Positions 1,115 through 50,116 of a stretch of 64,000 nucleotides of DNA are shown one piece after another (within the stretch, counting starts at the first letter, position 1; every line of letters starts with the position of its first letter). A program made the position numbers and the translations under genes. This DNA is from a virus (taxonomy: Duplodnaviria > Caudoviricetes), in the IMG/VR virus record IMGVR_UViG_3300028591_000070, positions 192,001 through 256,000 of that record; one strand, written 5' to 3'. The notes under the pieces were generated by a model, which did no database searches, had not been told where the DNA came from, and saw only the letters and a program-made list of their open reading frames with translations.

Positions 1115-2014
1115 TTAAAAATTATAAAGCATTACATCTTTCTGTGTTGAGCGGTCTTGAGCTTTATCATGATTCATTCCATGAGGTGAAACTCCTTTAA
1201 AAGCTTTTTCAGATAAAACTAAAACTTTCCAGCCTGCATCAAAAAATGGCTTTAAATTTTTAGTATCACTGAAGTCGTCAACTTTTGTTGAACCAAATAA
1301 GCATACAGGATTTACTTTAGATTTTTCTGTTAACCAATTTACAAATCTCTCTGAGTCCCAACTTTCTGGCAAATAATCAGAATAAGTATTATCATAAGGT
1401 GGATCAACCATCAATAAACCTTTTTCAATAACCAAATCCTCATAATCATCTGGGTGTGTTTCAAACTCTTTGTTATTTACACAGGCCAATCCATTCTTTA
1501 ATGTTTCTTTAATATTATCTGCATTTACAACTTTACCATTATAAGCTTGATTAAAATACCAAGGATTACCAGGAATCTTATGGCCATTCCATCTTATTAG
1601 CGATGATGTGCAAGTGTGGTCCAACCAGAAAAATTGCATGCATCTTTGGTCAAAATCATCTAATTGATTATTAAATCTTTCTCTAACCTCAAAGTATCTT
1701 TCTTTTGAACCTATGTACCAAGCTTTTACTGATGAGTCAAACCATTCATCAAAAGTGCCATCCTTAAAATGACTATATGCTAATTCAATAAAGGTTGCAA
1801 TGAAAATGTTTTTCTCATTATAAACTAATCGGTCAAAATATGGTGCTAATTGACAAGTCAAAGAGCCAGAGCCACCAAAAATATCATATAAAGTCTTCTC
1901 ACCACATGACTTTATTACTTCAGCTATTTTTTCACCATATTTTCTTTTTGTACCCAAATATGATGATATAAATCTTGCATTTGCATTAATATTGCTCATC
2001 TTCAAATTCTCCAT
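1115..2014 (-). CDS. dam: DNA adenine methyltransferase (Dam/D12 class)
   Basis: YLGTK, YDIFGGSGS (SAM-binding) and VDPPY catalytic motifs. Confidence 0.88.
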   Translation of the reverse strand: MENLKMSNINANARFISSYLGTKRKYGEKIAEVIKSCGEKTLYDIFGGSGSLTCQLAPYFDRLVYNEKNIFIATFIELAYSHFKDGTFDEWFDSSVKAWYIGSKERYFEVRERFNNQLDDFDQRCMQFFWLDHTCTSSLIRWNGHKIPGNPWYFNQAYNGKVVNADNIKETLKNGLACVNNKEFETHPDDYEDLVIEKGLLMVDPPYDNTYSDYLPESWDSERFVNWLTEKSKVNPVCLFGSTKVDDFSDTKNLKPFFDAGWKVLVLSEKAFKGVSPHGMNHDKAQDRSTQKDVMLYNF

Positions 2015-3082: not shown

Positions 3083-3832
3083 ATGAAGATAGATATTGTA
3101 GTTTGTTTTTGTGATAAAGACTATACTTTAATTGATAGATTTTTAAGCTATATTAAAAGATTGACATTTGATTATCAGCTTACTTTAATTGATAATCGCG
3201 TTGATAAAAGTATTGATTTACATGAAAAATTAGCAAATTATAATTATCTTATACCCGAAAAAGATAGAGGTTTATTTGAATCTCGTCGTTATGGATTTGA
3301 GCACACCAATAATGATTTTATTTGGTTTGTTGATATCGACGACGAGATTTTTGATTTTGAATTAAATATCCAACCTACTGATGATATTGTTCTTTATAAT
3401 TTTAGGGTTCATGACTTAAATAAAGACATTATCGGCAATAATGAAAGATGTTATACTAATCGAATATATAAAATAGACCCAAACAATGATAGCCAAGTTG
3501 GATATGTCAATTATTATTTTATGCATGATGGTATATGGAATAAAATTTTTAATAGAAAAACCCTTAAAAAGTGCTATGACTCTATTCCATTTTTAGAAAA
3601 CTTTTTTATTTATGAAGACCTTTTCTTAGAAAAACACTTTTCTTATTTTGCATCAATTTTTAGAACTGATACTCAATATATTTATCAGTGGAATATGACA
3701 ACCACTTATGAGATTAAAGACCATATGGAGGATGGCGAAAGGTTTTATAACTTAATCGCCAACCCAAAATTAAAAAAAGAATATAGAAAATATCTAGATT
3801 TAATTTATATCCAACTAGACTCTGAAAATTAA
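3083..3832 (+). CDS. glycosyltransferase family 2
   Basis: IDIVV...LIDN...SRRYG...FIWFVDIDD (DxD)...IWNKIF...YEDLF, typical GT-A/GT2 pattern. Confidence 0.85.
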   Translation: MKIDIVVCFCDKDYTLIDRFLSYIKRLTFDYQLTLIDNRVDKSIDLHEKLANYNYLIPEKDRGLFESRRYGFEHTNNDFIWFVDIDDEIFDFELNIQPTDDIVLYNFRVHDLNKDIIGNNERCYTNRIYKIDPNNDSQVGYVNYYFMHDGIWNKIFNRKTLKKCYDSIPFLENFFIYEDLFLEKHFSYFASIFRTDTQYIYQWNMTTTYEIKDHMEDGERFYNLIANPKLKKEYRKYLDLIYIQLDSEN

Positions 3833-5739
3833 ACGTACCAAACAGATGGAGTTCTTTCATAAACTGTGGCAGTTCTATCATAGTCAATAATTTCATCATC
3901 TTCTTTTAAATCTTCAAAGTTTACCGAACCTCTTTGAGTAATAACTGCTAGGTATTCTGAATTATTCCAAACATTTCCTTTATCATCTTCAACCTCAAAT
4001 CCTTCGCGATTATAAGGTGAACAGAAGAAGCGTTTCATATAATCTGCGATTTCTCCACGAGCTGGTATTTGTTGGAAGTTTGGATCATTCATTGCATGTC
4101 GCATACTTGTTGTACCAAAAGCATTACAAGATGGATGAACTCTATCTGTATTATCATCATTATGGTGAACAACACAATCTCCCCAACCAATAATAAATGC
4201 ATTTCTTGCAACATTCAAAGAACGGAATCTTTTAAGAATATCAATTCCAGGTTTATTTAAACGTTTATATTCAGTCAAAGCAGCATCGGATGTTGGATAA
4301 ACACCTGTTTTTGCTCTTTCACCTACACAAGGCCAGCCTAATTTTTCAAAAAGTTTTCCAAGCTCAACAGTTGAAGTAAATGGGAACTGAGGAGAAACAC
4401 CCCAAATCTTGGCCATTTCTTTTTTACATTCTTCAATTTTCTGCTGAATTTCTTTATCAGCAAAATCCATATAAGGCTTATCAAAGAATACACCATTTAA
4501 TTCATTATCAATACAAGCACAAAGATTTGGCATCATAACTTCTTTATACCATCTGTAAATTGTCCATTCTGGGATTTTTTCATTTGGCATAATTTCATCT
4601 ATATGATGACACCAGGCATCCATAGCTACTTGCTGGCGCCATGTTGAAATAGGGTCCATACCAGCATATTCTTTAAGAATAGGGAATACAATTTGGAGAT
4701 ATGATGTTACCTTCATCTTTTTCTTAATTTTATCCAAGGCATCATCATATCCACCAAGACTTCCGCACCAGAACCATGTTCCAGGTTTCAAACCTTTTGG
4801 TCTATAACTACACATAGCATGTGATAAAAGACAAGTATCATCTGTTGGATAAACACCTTTTACTCCATTTACGAATAAGAACCTAATATCAAATTTACCA
4901 TTGGCTAAAGTAAGACGCTTTGCAGATTTTAATACTTTTGTAAACTTTCGCTTATATACTCTTAAATCAGACCAGCTAAAGAAATATCCAATTTGGCCAT
5001 CATTACAAAGCTGAACTGTTCCTAATTGATCTTCCCAACAATTGAATCCACCTGTTTCAGTATCGAGCGCAAGTAATTCTGAGTTCATCAAACTATCTAA
5101 AACTTCATCAATTTTATCAGGGTCGACTTCAATCACAATTGGGTCTCTTGTATCTAATCCATTTGTGGTAAAGTCGTCATCTTTCATCATAGCCATATGC
5201 TTTCTAAAAATACGAGTATGCATATTGACTACATCTGTTGAGTTTAATTCTTTATATGGATAAATTGCATTAATTGAGTTTACAGGATAAATCCATTTAT
5301 CTGGACCACCAACAAATTTAGAGCCACAAAAATAACGAATTGGAGCAAATAATTCATCTGTAAAATCAAAATAACTAATGTCTGCTGATTTATTTAAAAG
5401 ACGAATTGCCCAACCAAATGAAACAATGGCTGAACATTCTTTTTGCTGATAGTTAAGGTATTTTCTCCACTGAGATTCTTTTGCCATCAAATCTGTTGTT
5501 GATGTTTCTTCAAGTTTATCATAATCAACACAAGAGAGTGCGATATAAGAATCAATACCAATTACTTTCAAATCATTTTTAAGATTCTGAATAACTCTTT
5601 TATCTTTTTCAGCCACATCCAAAAGAAACATAAAAAATGTGGGTGATTCTGGGTTGATATTATCAATAATTAAAATATCTGATTTTTCTTTTTGTAAGTC
5701 TTTAATTTTTGTATTTACATTTACATGTCCGAAGTTCAT
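3829..5739 (-). CDS. polA: DNA polymerase family A, N-terminal fragment (UDG-like domain + 3'-5' exonuclease + thumb), Hint-like tail
   Basis: ExoI ALDTETGG, ExoII NGKFD, ExoIII YAGMD; RVHP...TTSMRHAMNDPNFQQIP; ends before motif A. Confidence 0.88.
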   Translation of the reverse strand: MNFGHVNVNTKIKDLQKEKSDILIIDNINPESPTFFMFLLDVAEKDKRVIQNLKNDLKVIGIDSYIALSCVDYDKLEETSTTDLMAKESQWRKYLNYQQKECSAIVSFGWAIRLLNKSADISYFDFTDELFAPIRYFCGSKFVGGPDKWIYPVNSINAIYPYKELNSTDVVNMHTRIFRKHMAMMKDDDFTTNGLDTRDPIVIEVDPDKIDEVLDSLMNSELLALDTETGGFNCWEDQLGTVQLCNDGQIGYFFSWSDLRVYKRKFTKVLKSAKRLTLANGKFDIRFLFVNGVKGVYPTDDTCLLSHAMCSYRPKGLKPGTWFWCGSLGGYDDALDKIKKKMKVTSYLQIVFPILKEYAGMDPISTWRQQVAMDAWCHHIDEIMPNEKIPEWTIYRWYKEVMMPNLCACIDNELNGVFFDKPYMDFADKEIQQKIEECKKEMAKIWGVSPQFPFTSTVELGKLFEKLGWPCVGERAKTGVYPTSDAALTEYKRLNKPGIDILKRFRSLNVARNAFIIGWGDCVVHHNDDNTDRVHPSCNAFGTTSMRHAMNDPNFQQIPARGEIADYMKRFFCSPYNREGFEVEDDKGNVWNNSEYLAVITQRGSVNFEDLKEDDEIIDYDRTATVYERTPSVWYV

Positions 5740-5746
5740 GTAAATG

Positions 5747-5754
5747 ATATTAAC
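5747..5754 (-). promoter_or_regulatory. middle-type promoter motif GTTAATAT
   Basis: Recurs upstream of replication genes: 2348, 8985, 10820, 13585(+), 27252, 29127, 29139(+), 31358, 44510, 57634, 57886, 62371(+). Confidence 0.7.
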
Positions 5755-26235: not shown

Positions 26236-27245
26236 TGTAAAACTTCCTTATTATCAATAATATACTCATAGCCTCTAGGGTCTGTAGTTCTTCGAGGAAC
26301 ATATTGAACACCAATCTTTGGAGTTAAGTCAATAACACCATGAAGAGGAATCCATCCATTTTTAACTGCGTCAATATCATCAAAGGTAAAGTTTTTACCA
26401 AACTTTTCATTCCATTTTGCTAACTCAACTTTAATATCAAACTTTTCAATATTTATTTCTCTACCTTGACGGAATACTTCTCCTGCTGATGGGTCTGCTT
26501 CCTCAACGTCAATATGCATTGGAATACCAAAATTAGGTTGACGAGCAACTGAAGCAAGATAGTTTAGATAAGCATACATTAAATCTCTTTCAGGTTTGTA
26601 AACATATAACTCCTGAGAGTCATGTACATAATTAAATACTCTAGAACGCAATCCTAATTTCTTAATCATACCACAAACTGCTGTTACATTAGGCATGGCT
26701 TGGTAAACTTCTTCTGTCTGAACTGGGGAGTTTGTAGCATCATTTTTAAGGTGTTTAAACATAGCACTAAACAATTTTTTGTCTGCGCCTACGACTTCAC
26801 CTTTAGCATTTCTTTTCATAAAACGGAATTCTTGAAGATGGCGAACAGGACCAGTCCAAGTTCTAACATATCCATGTGTCATAGCAAAATTTTGCTCACG
26901 TTCAGTACGACCAAAGAGTCCTGGATATGTATCAGCGAATAATTCACGGATTTTAGTGCCAATTAAAGAATATTTAATATCGAGTGGATCTTGATTTGGC
27001 TTTTTAGCCAATATAGCTTGATTTATAGCATCAGTAAGTCCAAAAGCTTTTGCAGCTTTATCACAATCTTCTTCACTAAAACCACTTTGTCTCATCTGAG
27101 AACCTAAAGCTGAACCCGAACAAGCAAAAATTGTAGCAAAGTTTACTGTTTTAGAGTTTTGTCTATCATCACTGTAGGGTTTTATTTTTTTAACTTTAAG
27201 AAAGTCAGCCAACTCCATTGGCCTTTTTGTAATTGTATAAGACAT
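26232..27245 (-). CDS. polA: DNA polymerase family A, C-terminal fragment (fingers/palm)
   Basis: Motif B RQNSKTVNFATIF, GYVRTWTGPVR, ATNSPVQ, motif C VHDS. Confidence 0.88.
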   Translation of the reverse strand: MSYTITKRPMELADFLKVKKIKPYSDDRQNSKTVNFATIFACSGSALGSQMRQSGFSEEDCDKAAKAFGLTDAINQAILAKKPNQDPLDIKYSLIGTKIRELFADTYPGLFGRTEREQNFAMTHGYVRTWTGPVRHLQEFRFMKRNAKGEVVGADKKLFSAMFKHLKNDATNSPVQTEEVYQAMPNVTAVCGMIKKLGLRSRVFNYVHDSQELYVYKPERDLMYAYLNYLASVARQPNFGIPMHIDVEEADPSAGEVFRQGREINIEKFDIKVELAKWNEKFGKNFTFDDIDAVKNGWIPLHGVIDLTPKIGVQYVPRRTTDPRGYEYIIDNKEVLQ

Positions 27246-27283
27246 AACATTATATTAACTAATTTATTCAAGGAGAAATATAA

Positions 27284-48405: not shown

Positions 48406-49254
48406 TTATCCCCTATAGTTATAAAATGCTTTTTTGCAATTCTCATCTAACATATCATAGTAAATATTAACTTCTACACCTTTTGAATTAAAAAAGGGTT
48501 TTATATTTGGCAAATCTTTAATAGAAGCTTCTCGAATAGTACAACAAACGCAAATATCTTTTTTATCAAAAATGGAAATTAAGTTATCAAAGTTTTCCAT
48601 AACTTGTTCCCAATTTGCGCCACATCTTGTTCCTTCAAAACTCTCTTTAGTTATGCCGTCTATAGAAGCAACAAACATATATTTAACACCAGTTTGTTCA
48701 CTTATTTTCTTTAATTCTAAAATACGATTTTTATTTAATAAAGTCATATTAGTAAAAAACCGCATAGTTTCAGTATCATTAAGAGTAAGACTCCTTAAAA
48801 ATTTAACAACCTCATTATAATAAAAGAATGGCTCTCCTTGGTCTGTGAGTTGTAGTTGATAAAGCTGATGACCTTTAACACTGTATAATGTTTTAAAAAA
48901 TAAATCTTTAATCTGTTTAGTATCTGTGTGATGTCCATCAAAAAAACAATCATGACAATGAATATTACAAGCATGAGATAAAGATACCACTACTTGTTTA
49001 ATTTTATCGGGTGGAAAATAACAAGTAGTACATCTATCCATGGTCATTTGTTTTCGTAATTCTTCAGGAGAAGGATATTTAAACGTCTTTGTATAATCTA
49101 TTATATCATCTATTTTTGAAAATTCTTCAAAGCTCAGGGTTTTAAAAGGAGCTAAATGACAACATCTTTTTAGAGCAACTTCTGTATCATTTTCTCTTGT
49201 AATCCAAAGCGCACCATAAGGAATGGTACAATTTCCATGATTTGCGAATTCCAT
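48406..49254 (-). CDS. radical SAM protein 3
   Basis: CNIHCHDCFF, DQGEPF; start reassigned to MEFANHG after ACTAAT. Confidence 0.9.
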   Translation of the reverse strand: MEFANHGNCTIPYGALWITRENDTEVALKRCCHLAPFKTLSFEEFSKIDDIIDYTKTFKYPSPEELRKQMTMDRCTTCYFPPDKIKQVVVSLSHACNIHCHDCFFDGHHTDTKQIKDLFFKTLYSVKGHQLYQLQLTDQGEPFFYYNEVVKFLRSLTLNDTETMRFFTNMTLLNKNRILELKKISEQTGVKYMFVASIDGITKESFEGTRCGANWEQVMENFDNLISIFDKKDICVCCTIREASIKDLPNIKPFFNSKGVEVNIYYDMLDENCKKAFYNYRG

Positions 49255-49263
49255 AACAATAAA

Positions 49264-49276
49264 ATTAGTGACTAAT
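49264..49276. promoter_or_regulatory. divergent late-type promoter pair ATTAGT-g-ACTAAT
   Basis: Inverted repeat between ATG 49254(-) and ATG 49283(+). Confidence 0.7.
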
Positions 49277-49282
49277 TTCAAT

Positions 49283-50116
49283 ATGAATAAATGCCATAGA
49301 AAAATATATTCTATACAAGTAGATTTTACTATAAATAAAGTTGAACTAACAAAATGCTGCTATTTACATGGAAATAAAATTTCAATTGAAGAATTTAAGG
49401 CATTAGATAATATTATTATTCCACCAAATGAATTACCTTCTAATCCTTACCATATTGAAAATTGTTTAATGAATTGCGACTTTGATGATAATAAATATCA
49501 AACAATAGATATTTGTTGCAGTAGTTTATGTAATGCAAAATGTTATCATTGTTGTGCTGCAGATCATTCTCATCCCGACCCTAGAGAAAGAGATTTACTT
49601 TATAATTTTATTTTACCAAAAGTAAAAGGTTTTGGATATGGAACTCTTCAACTAGATGGGAAAGGAGAAGTATTTTTAAATTATAAAGAAATAACAGCAT
49701 TTTTAAAAACTCTTTCTGCTGAAAAAGATTTTAAGACTGTAAGATTTTTAACAAATGGTTCAACACTCACTAAAGAACGATTATTAGAATTAAAATCTAT
49801 TAGTGATATGACAGGTATAAACTATATTTTTGCAATTTCAGTAGATGGCATTAGTAAAAAAACCTTTGAAGCAGTGAGATGTGGACTTTCTTTTGAAAAT
49901 GTAATGGCTAATTTGCAGAACACTGTAGAGATTTTTGGAAATAATAATGTAGATATTACTTTTACGATTAAAGAACCTAACAAAGAAGACACTCCTTATG
50001 TGAAAGATTTTTTAGTAAATAATTATAATATTTTACCTGAAAGAATCGCTATGCAAAGTGATTTTTTAGATAAAAATATGAATCAATATTTAACAAATTA
50101 TTTTAAAGATCGTTAA
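49283..50116 (+). CDS. radical SAM protein 4
   Basis: CNAKCYHCCA, DGKGEVF, TNG, SVDG; start MNKCHRK. Confidence 0.9.
   Translation: MNKCHRKIYSIQVDFTINKVELTKCCYLHGNKISIEEFKALDNIIIPPNELPSNPYHIENCLMNCDFDDNKYQTIDICCSSLCNAKCYHCCAADHSHPDPRERDLLYNFILPKVKGFGYGTLQLDGKGEVFLNYKEITAFLKTLSAEKDFKTVRFLTNGSTLTKERLLELKSISDMTGINYIFAISVDGISKKTFEAVRCGLSFENVMANLQNTVEIFGNNNVDITFTIKEPNKEDTPYVKDFLVNNYNILPERIAMQSDFLDKNMNQYLTNYFKDR

Follow-up and report, generated by a model that had tools for sequence, protein, structure and literature searches.

Inteins are regarded as selfish elements in which splicing is the only retained activity. Several described systems are close to the one considered here. In the fractured genes of phages, genes of DNA metabolism are broken at a split intein, and it was proposed that complementary charges on two long antiparallel strands steer the association of the halves (Dassa et al. 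2009, PMC2677866). In S-SBP1-like phages, which are T7-type cyanophages, the family A DNA polymerase (PolA) is split into exonuclease and polymerase parts encoded by two adjacent genes, and the parts presumably associate (Czernecki et al. 2023, PMC10201439). The B-family polymerase of phage phiKZ is described in the available text of a preprint (Basu et al. 2026, PMC13648687) as a jumbo-phage replicative enzyme in which the separately encoded pieces DNAP-N and DNAP-C form a stable non-covalent complex. A split Pol III alpha, an enzyme of a different family from PolA, is present in some jumbo phages (PMC7824862). The stretch of 64,000 nucleotides analyzed here (hereafter, the window) comprises bases 192001–256000 of the virus record IMGVR_UViG_3300028591_000070, which is 385,934 bp long and has a G+C content of ~31%. 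This record encodes a PolA as three dispersed genes, designated N, Mid, and C, of which N and C lie in the window. The N and Mid proteins end in short tails that resemble one half of the Hint fold of inteins. These tails are interpreted below as splicing-dead relics of split inteins that serve as non-covalent clasps between the polymerase pieces, a reading to which we assign a probability of roughly 0.6. The coordinates of the features are collected in Table 1.

The N-piece holds the exonuclease, the thumb, and the first palm strands, motif A is carried by Mid, and motifs B and C are found in the C-piece. According to the Pfam analysis, residues 207–314 of the N-piece belong to DNA_pol_A_exo1 and residues 427–576 to DNA_pol_A (profile positions 7–149 of 381), and the C-piece covers the latter profile within positions 199–375. 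These two pieces are the only DNA_pol_A matches in the 386-kb record, with profile positions 150–198 left uncovered. The features that define family A (PF00476 and PF01612: exonuclease and motifs A, B, and C) are all present, spread across three genes. Both breaks are located inside the catalytic domain, site 1 before motif A and site 2 between motifs A and B. The three pieces are scattered over 176 kb, with separations of 23–176 kb. All of them are intact open reading frames (ORFs) with retained catalytic residues, and they show 45–96% identity across dozens of independent metagenomic contigs. Neither PolB nor Pol III alpha was detected in the 386-kb record; thus, the three-gene PolA is the sole replicative polymerase found in it. 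The PolA proteins of the closest named phages were only distantly similar (21–31% identity) and uninformative.

The DNA_pol_A match on the N-piece stops after the sequence PNFQQIP...KRFFCSP, at the point where the motif A strand would come next. In all PolAs, the strand ending with this sequence pairs with the motif A strand. In place of motif A, the N-piece runs on for ~60 residues (59–63) and then ends with a stop codon. Positions 3829–4008 of the window correspond to the last 59 codons of the N-piece plus the stop codon, and the string FEVEDD...EDDEII represents residues 581–618. The homologs of the N-piece (n = 31, 355–696 aa) are all 613–696 aa long, except for the partial 355-aa protein P0004. 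The tail is kept in all 29 relatives split at site 1, mostly with 49–87% identity to the tail of the N-piece under study, and is therefore not a chance run-on. Its invariant or near-invariant positions are N593, G604, F608, D615, and Y620. At the other end of the protein, residues 1–200 (window 5140–5739, minus strand) are well conserved in the clade and match no Pfam family.

A regular-expression search of the whole genome for the canonical motif A (DYSQIE-like) gave nothing relevant. The Mid gene was located using the motif A segment (DFRSLQ-type) of a relative as a query against all six-frame ORFs, which resulted in a single match (blastp, E 4.6e-16). The source of the query was the pair of related proteins P0030 and P0031, in which motif A of the form LLVNADFRSLQL stands ahead of a similar tail. 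The Mid protein starts with MALKIKKQEK, contains motif A (LLVDADFRSLQ, with the invariant D20) and the DAHSxT helix, and ends in its own tail of ~50 residues, which is distantly related to that of the N-piece. A search of the genome with a hidden Markov model (HMM) of the tail recovers two copies and no more, one at the C-terminal end of N and the other at that of Mid. HMMs constructed from either set of tails find the other set in register (best E 1.4e-4 and 3.1e-4, Z = 1000), indicating that the N and Mid tails are distant paralogues and not recent duplicates. A candidate third copy at window positions 48409–49359 (E 0.08) was dropped, as this sequence has a weak radical-SAM match instead. 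Matches of Mid to giant repeat proteins (Big_7, PKD, and ricin types; P0043, P0065, and P0070) were judged to be compositional, being sums of weak per-repeat matches (BLAST per repeat, E 4e-4 to 0.5).

Two further features of Mid concern its motif and its surroundings. Motif A of the clade is DFRSLQ rather than DYSQIE; most Mid homologs have Gln as the last residue, and a few (P0049, P0057, and P0063) have Glu. The Glu of DYSQIE is the sugar steric gate in Klenow and Taq, and Gln in the same position might, judging by the motif, alter ribonucleotide discrimination. The Mid gene adjoins a DnaG-like primase gene, directly upstream of it. The product of the latter gene (L004:5864-7000, minus strand, directly 3' of Mid) is 378 aa long; its assignment as a DnaG-like primase was made by eye, from a CHC2-type zinc-finger motif and a region resembling Toprim. 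Co-expression of this primase with the motif A subunit is possible.

Sequence similarity to inteins was found for the Mid tail. In a search of the Mid-family profile against all PDB sequences, the best match was 9hth_A (E 0.0026), aligned over the tail only. The 9hth entry contains, in fused form, the Aes123 PolB1 split intein, which lacks cysteines and comes from a T4-like phage; the aligned intein segment consists of block B and the following N4 strand (...VTADHSVMVKRDGK...MKQTDRVV). The AlphaFold2 (AF2) model of the N tail, based on 16 aligned sequences, contains five strands and has a mean predicted local distance difference test (pLDDT) value of 81.5, reaching ~91 over model residues 11–50; the model of the Mid tail (pLDDT 83.1) also contains five strands. 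When the N-tail model was compared with 48,161 PDB representative chains in VIA-align, all 20 matches with a Z of at least 2 were inteins or the hedgehog Hint domain (Z 2.1–3.5, root-mean-square deviation (rmsd) 2.4–4.0, 41–55 aligned residues). Of the 38 matches of the Mid tail, 24 were Hint folds, including all of the first 14, with Z up to 5.0; BAH and GINS domains appeared low in the list. Foldseek analysis of the N tail against the PDB gave a concordant picture: every match at TMq ~0.5, rmsd 2.3–2.4 Å, and ~40 columns was an intein, among them Npu DnaE IntN (the N-terminal intein fragment), MchDnaB-1, gp41-1, Mtu RecA, and Ssp DnaB. The Hint-fold similarity anticipated by the original prediction, which had been made from the DNA sequence of the locus, was thus found for both tails in VIA-align, and in Foldseek the structurally sensible matches were all inteins, none of them statistically significant. 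Such exclusivity of Hint folds among the matches of the predicted structures appears striking and would be hard to obtain by chance from 48,161 chains. The aligned range covers residues 49–96 of the 101 of Npu IntN and residues 72–120 of the 120-aa Aes123 IntN; hence, the position of the break is that of the canonical natural split, after the N4 strand. Hint (intein) ancestry of the tails is considered very likely. Elsewhere in the record, outside the window, the ORF G000:C1:340130-341524 (minus strand; L027) encodes a 142-aa intein-like C-part fused to an ATPase. This part contains an AGEH block-B-like motif and an ...IHHN/T junction and is missed by PF14890; its presence indicates that real split inteins exist in the genome.

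The splicing apparatus of an intein is missing at both breaks. The complete Hint horseshoe (~130–150 residues) is absent: there are ~50 residues on the N-piece and ~7 on Mid, and only the block-B/N4 part aligns. The tail directly follows the extein strand ...RFFCSPYNREGF, leaving no block A, and no conserved Cys/Ser/Thr nucleophile was found at the extein/tail junction in either tail family. The TxxH signature of block B is gone, since TADH of Aes123 aligns with G-E-D-Q in the Mid tail and, via the tail alignment, with S-E-Y-L in the N tail. A C-terminal intein fragment (IntC) of ~35–40 residues is absent as well, and only its first strand (~7 residues) is recognizable. The polymerase sequence resumes early, after ~13 residues in Mid (YLLVDADF) and after ~8 residues in C (..LADFLK.., O-helix), which means that blocks F/G, the terminal Asn, and the +1 nucleophile are missing. 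No HN-C/S/T was found at the start of Mid, C, or their homologs. With block A, the block-B histidine, and blocks F/G missing, no splicing by the tail is expected. The original prediction had stated that the tail replaces motif A at the end of the N-piece, that it has no block A, and that the C-piece begins with MSYTITKR (from window position 27245, minus strand) without HN-C/S/T. The first statement is borne out by the end of the Pfam match at residue 576 and the conserved tail that follows it, and the other two agree with the present data. The replacement of TxxH by NSEY, also claimed there, holds in that the histidine is absent in either register; the profile alignment gives S594-E595-Y596-L597, one residue off.

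The pieces downstream of the breaks have a common type of beginning. After the MSYTITKR start, the C-piece contains motif B (SKTVNFATIF), motif C (YVHDSQE), the fingers O-helix, the palm, and a C-terminal extension of ~70 aa. Its homologs (n = 56) begin with MYKITKR followed by (E)MTLEDFLKLKK, and those of Mid with MLKIKK, MLKITK, MACKITKE, or MVKINKE. Thus, a conserved basic xKIxK strand opens the piece downstream of each break, and both tails are acidic. The net charge of the N tail over its last 55 aa is -9 in the phage under study, -4 to -12 in 11 of 12 relatives, and -1 in P0032; that of the Mid tail over its last 50 aa is mostly -2 to -13. The start of the C-piece carries +1 to +7 over the first 24 aa in relatives, and the start of Mid +3 over 10 aa here and -2 to +4 in relatives. 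This acidic-N/basic-C polarity agrees with that of DnaE-type split inteins (PMC2677866).

Taken in this way, the N tail would be a shrunken remnant of the N-fragment of a natural split intein, in which the block-B/N4 half of the Hint fold is kept. The retained part would be the one by which the halves of natural split inteins recognize each other, namely, the C-terminal strands of IntN together with the opening strand of IntC. An acidic beta module would end the upstream piece, and the basic xKIxK strand opening the downstream piece would complete the sheet of this module. Two such clasps, one per break, would hold N, Mid, and C together non-covalently as one active family A polymerase, and no peptide bond would be formed between the pieces. 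Intein ancestry, strand complementation, and the contribution of the tails to assembly are what we infer here. The middle fragment, for which the original prediction had considered complementary strands, does exist, and Mid opens with the basic sequence MALKIKK, similar to MSYTITK of the C-piece. The proposal that remnants of split inteins act as non-splicing association tags is supported too, with docking deduced from the co-occurrence of the tails with the split state, the charge complementarity, and the predicted complex described below. On this basis, which includes structural modeling, a docking function of the tails is probable. Somewhat doubtful, and offered tentatively, is the wider proposal that the two junctions represent two natural minimal heterodimerization pairs (~50 + 7 residues), each specific to its junction, which have lost the splicing chemistry and hold a replicative polymerase together.

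Related polymerases show different states of the two sites. Site 1 is unsplit and free of any insert in P0030, P0031, and the genomes G002–G004. In P0053, the module is located in-line: the N part, the tail, a linker, LLKIEH, and motif A form one chain (N-tail HMM, E 2e-8). Site 1 is split, with the module present, in 29 proteins and in the complete 301-kb relative G001. At site 2, in-line forms are represented by P0080 and P0088 (clusters of 17 and 11 members), in which Mid, the tail, a 13-residue linker, RVTLTER, and C follow each other in a single chain; otherwise, this site is split. In the in-line forms, the module is a permanent insertion, with module, linker, and strand kept together. 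A split without a module was not seen among the relatives examined. The three-gene layout is also found in the complete 301-kb relative, which has terminal repeats. Where a fused N+Mid gene and the C gene are adjacent, the junction is either an 8-nt overlap or a gap containing a LytB gene or two small ORFs. The overlap (genome G004, L011:8004-8011) involves different frames and looks like translational coupling; as the simplest split state of site 2, it suggests that the break arose in place and that the pieces were dispersed later. The LytB/IspH gene (Pfam E 1.7e-61), encoding an enzyme of the isoprenoid pathway, lies exactly between the fused N+Mid and C genes in the 329-kb relative G002 (L010:7151-7993, plus strand). 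As far as sequence comparison goes, this series of states fits the clasp interpretation.

The complex of the three chains was predicted using residues 380–636 of N together with Mid and C, each with its own alignment. The interface score ipSAE was 0.84, compared with 0.02 for the best control. Of 80 solved complexes, 58 attained that mark, as did 2 of 110 mismatched pairs; much of this score must, at the same time, reflect likeness to solved PolA structures. Contact agreement between the runs was at least 96%, and the partner pLDDT was at least 89. In the predicted complex, residues 574–586, 594, 611–615, 617, 626, and 630 of the N-piece are in contact with Mid, and the interface also includes residues 1–12 of C, which face Mid, and residues 93–101, 107–113, and 130–139 of the Mid tail. 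In the output, the contacts of Mid are not assigned to one or the other partner chain and no tail-to-strand pairs are listed; the prediction is therefore consistent with strand complementation and is no proof of it. Nor can it show how much of the association is due to the tails and how much to the polymerase core.

Together with these properties of the prediction, several other results weigh against the proposed origin and role of the tails. The absolute structural Z values are low (2–5), which is due to the module having only ~50 residues, and no Foldseek match of the N tail reaches E ≤ 0.001 (E ~2). Second among the PDB matches of the Mid-family profile comes a barrel of the SH3-like type that was designed de novo (E 0.15), and a small beta-barrel of a generic kind therefore has to be considered. 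Single-sequence Pfam and NCBIfam scans (E ≤ 10) of the tails and 19 Mid homologs revealed no intein, Hint, or SH3 family, the PF14890 search of the whole genome gave no match, and phmmer searches of single tails against the PDB returned chance-level matches only, with no intein among them. Comparison of the tail alignment with the atypical intein of the same genome in hhalign gave a probability of 0.6%, a value that is uninformative since the template was a single sequence. The sequence link of the N tail itself to inteins is indirect and runs via the Mid tail. A homing endonuclease was searched for in the gaps between the N+Mid and C genes of relatives and was not found, the small ORFs there having no endonuclease match. 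Finally, the searches made brought up no relative that has an intact intein at site 1 or site 2, although they do not exclude one.

The predicted complex bears directly on the explanation that competes best with the clasp interpretation, namely, that the tail does derive from a split intein and is merely tolerated, with the palm and fingers interfaces of the polymerase driving assembly. Most of the predicted contacts with the lowest error belong to the palm (Mid 13–18 with C 213–217 and 247–251) and not to the tail, and fused forms without the site-1 module exist. Besides, for the T7-like PolA split between the exonuclease and polymerase parts, association is predicted without the help of any module (PMC10201439). 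However, a tail without a job would hardly persist in every relative split at site 1 across such deep divergence, nor retain invariant positions and a conserved charge pattern to which the partner strand corresponds, as useless sequence is usually deleted from phage genomes; the in-line forms, moreover, retain module, linker, and strand together. Such a vestigial tail is considered unlikely.

Less probable still is an origin unrelated to inteins, in which the module would be a small beta-barrel of a generic kind inserted in the PolA of this clade, such as a knob on the palm and fingers that binds DNA or a partner. It would then do no more than resemble half a Hint fold, and the breaks would have arisen inside it because the insertion lies at the surface. 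The low Z values, the lack of intein matches in Pfam and NCBIfam, the SH3-like designed barrel, the BAH and GINS domains low in the Mid-tail list, and the existence of in-line versions are what this explanation would lead one to expect. It does not account well for the exclusivity of Hint folds (20 of 20 for the N tail; the top 14 for the Mid tail), which is unlikely by chance among 48,161 chains, or for a best sequence match to a phage polymerase split intein aligned over block B and N4. The position of the break at the canonical split-intein site, the matching acidic-N/basic-C polarity (PMC2677866), and the real split intein in the same genome also speak for intein descent.

A split intein that is still active, though very unusual, and trans-splices the pieces into one chain would share the Hint-like fold, the position of the break, and its polarity with the tails, and atypical inteins do exist, one of them in the same genome. 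However, the block A strands and a conserved junction Cys/Ser/Thr are missing, the TxxH histidine is replaced, only about 7–10 residues precede the resumption of the extein in Mid and C, where blocks F/G, the terminal Asn, and the nucleophile are absent, and in the in-line forms the module stays in place as a permanent insert, all of which makes activity very improbable. Equally improbable, despite the dispersal of the pieces over 176 kb, is that they are decaying pseudogene fragments or an assembly artefact in a phage replicating with another polymerase, because the three ORFs are intact and conserved in dozens of independent contigs (45–96% identity) with their catalytic residues, the same layout recurs in the complete 301-kb relative with terminal repeats, and no PolB or Pol III alpha was detected.

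Table 1. Features of the three-gene PolA and its Hint-like tails (window positions unless stated otherwise).
Feature	Position	Strand	Basis
PolA N-piece gene, 636 aa	3829-5739	-	ORF, translation, Pfam
Hint-like tail core of the N-piece, residues 581-620 (FEVEDD...IIDY), five short predicted beta strands, acidic	3880-3999	-	AF2, VIA-align, Foldseek, conservation
C-terminal tail extension of the N-piece, residues 621-636 (DRTATVYERTPSVWYV)	3832-3879	-	pLDDT 54-65; partly conserved YD...Y....W.Y
GTTAATAT motif, 7 nt before the start codon of the N-piece gene	5747-5754	-	
PolA C-piece gene, 337 aa	26232-27245	-	ORF, Pfam DNA_pol_A profile 239-375
C-piece N-terminal strand MSYTITK (family consensus MYKITKR), basic, resembling the first strand of split-intein C-fragments	27225-27245	-	conserved start in homologs; predicted packing on the Mid tail
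GTTAATAT motif, 6 nt before the start codon of the C-piece gene	27252-27259	-	
PolA Mid gene, 139 aa	G000:C1:43003-43419 (L004:7004-7420), outside the window, ~150 kb away	-	blastp

The octamer GTTAATAT occurs in 21 copies in the window, compared with 5.8 expected, and none of 100 shuffles reached 21. Most copies are located on the coding strand shortly 5' of start codons. The octamer was also found 10 nt upstream of the start of Mid (L004), so that it stands 6–10 nt before all three polymerase genes. It probably represents a shared promoter or translation-start element. As for the neighborhood of the N-piece gene, a family 2 glycosyltransferase gene (window 3083–3832, plus strand; Pfam E 2.5e-6) converges on it and overlaps its stop codon by 4 nt, and a gene encoding a D12-class N6-adenine DNA methyltransferase (Pfam E 1e-12) is located nearby (window 1115–2014, minus strand).

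If the clasp interpretation is true, the tails would be the first natural case of an intein domesticated as a pure assembly device. Replication could then be controlled by the timing or place of synthesis of the small motif A subunit, which is encoded beside the primase. Erosion of splicing combined with selection for the half that recognizes the partner fragment would also illustrate the fate of dead split inteins and their co-option by the host gene. Two short natural association tags that do not splice, are possibly orthogonal, and tolerate insertion in a surface loop would be potential engineering tools. The tails would isolate the "capture" step of split-intein assembly from its chemistry, in a system that is small and easy to express.

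To our knowledge, a family A polymerase cut twice within the catalytic core has not been described previously. Full-text literature searches revealed nothing comparable on degenerate, inactive, or domesticated inteins, and the only PolA split found was that of T7-like cyanophages between the exonuclease and polymerase parts (PMC10201439). In the latter, the split lies between domains, there is no module, and the new termini are exposed to solvent, whereas the PolA described here has two breaks within the catalytic domain, three dispersed genes, and Hint-like modules. The phiKZ polymerase belongs to family B and consists of two pieces, and no intein-like element is mentioned in the available text of the preprint (PMC13648687); the present enzyme belongs to family A and consists of three.

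Non-splicing proteins with the Hint fold, such as the hedgehog autoprocessing domain (1at0, which is among the structural matches) and bacterial intein-like domains, resemble the tails in putting this fold to a use other than splicing. They contain a complete Hint domain with autocatalytic cleavage, unlike the half-domain without catalytic residues found here. Fractured genes (PMC2677866) are characterized by complete inteins and a free-standing homing endonuclease between adjacent halves. Neither is present in the locus under study, in which the pieces are 23–176 kb apart, and PolA is not among the eight enzyme types of that work. In every catalytic feature, in the length of IntC, and in the intervening endonuclease, this PolA falls outside both split inteins and fractured genes.

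The closest likeness is to natural split inteins (Npu and Ssp DnaE, gp41-1, NrdJ-1, and Aes123 PolB1; structures 4lx3, 6riz, 8ubs, and 9hth). As in these, the upstream piece carries the module at its C-terminal end, and the module can be superposed on the half of IntN from block B to N4 and ends at the natural split site; the start of the downstream piece resembles the first strand of IntC, the N side is acidic and the C side basic, and the host gene encodes a phage replication enzyme. Natural split inteins comprise ~100–120 + 35–40 residues compared with ~50 + 7 here, and they possess block A, TxxH, blocks F/G, the Asn, and the +1 nucleophile that are lacking in the tails. Unlike them, the PolA studied here has two pairs in one enzyme, and its relatives carry in-line versions of the module that are not excised.

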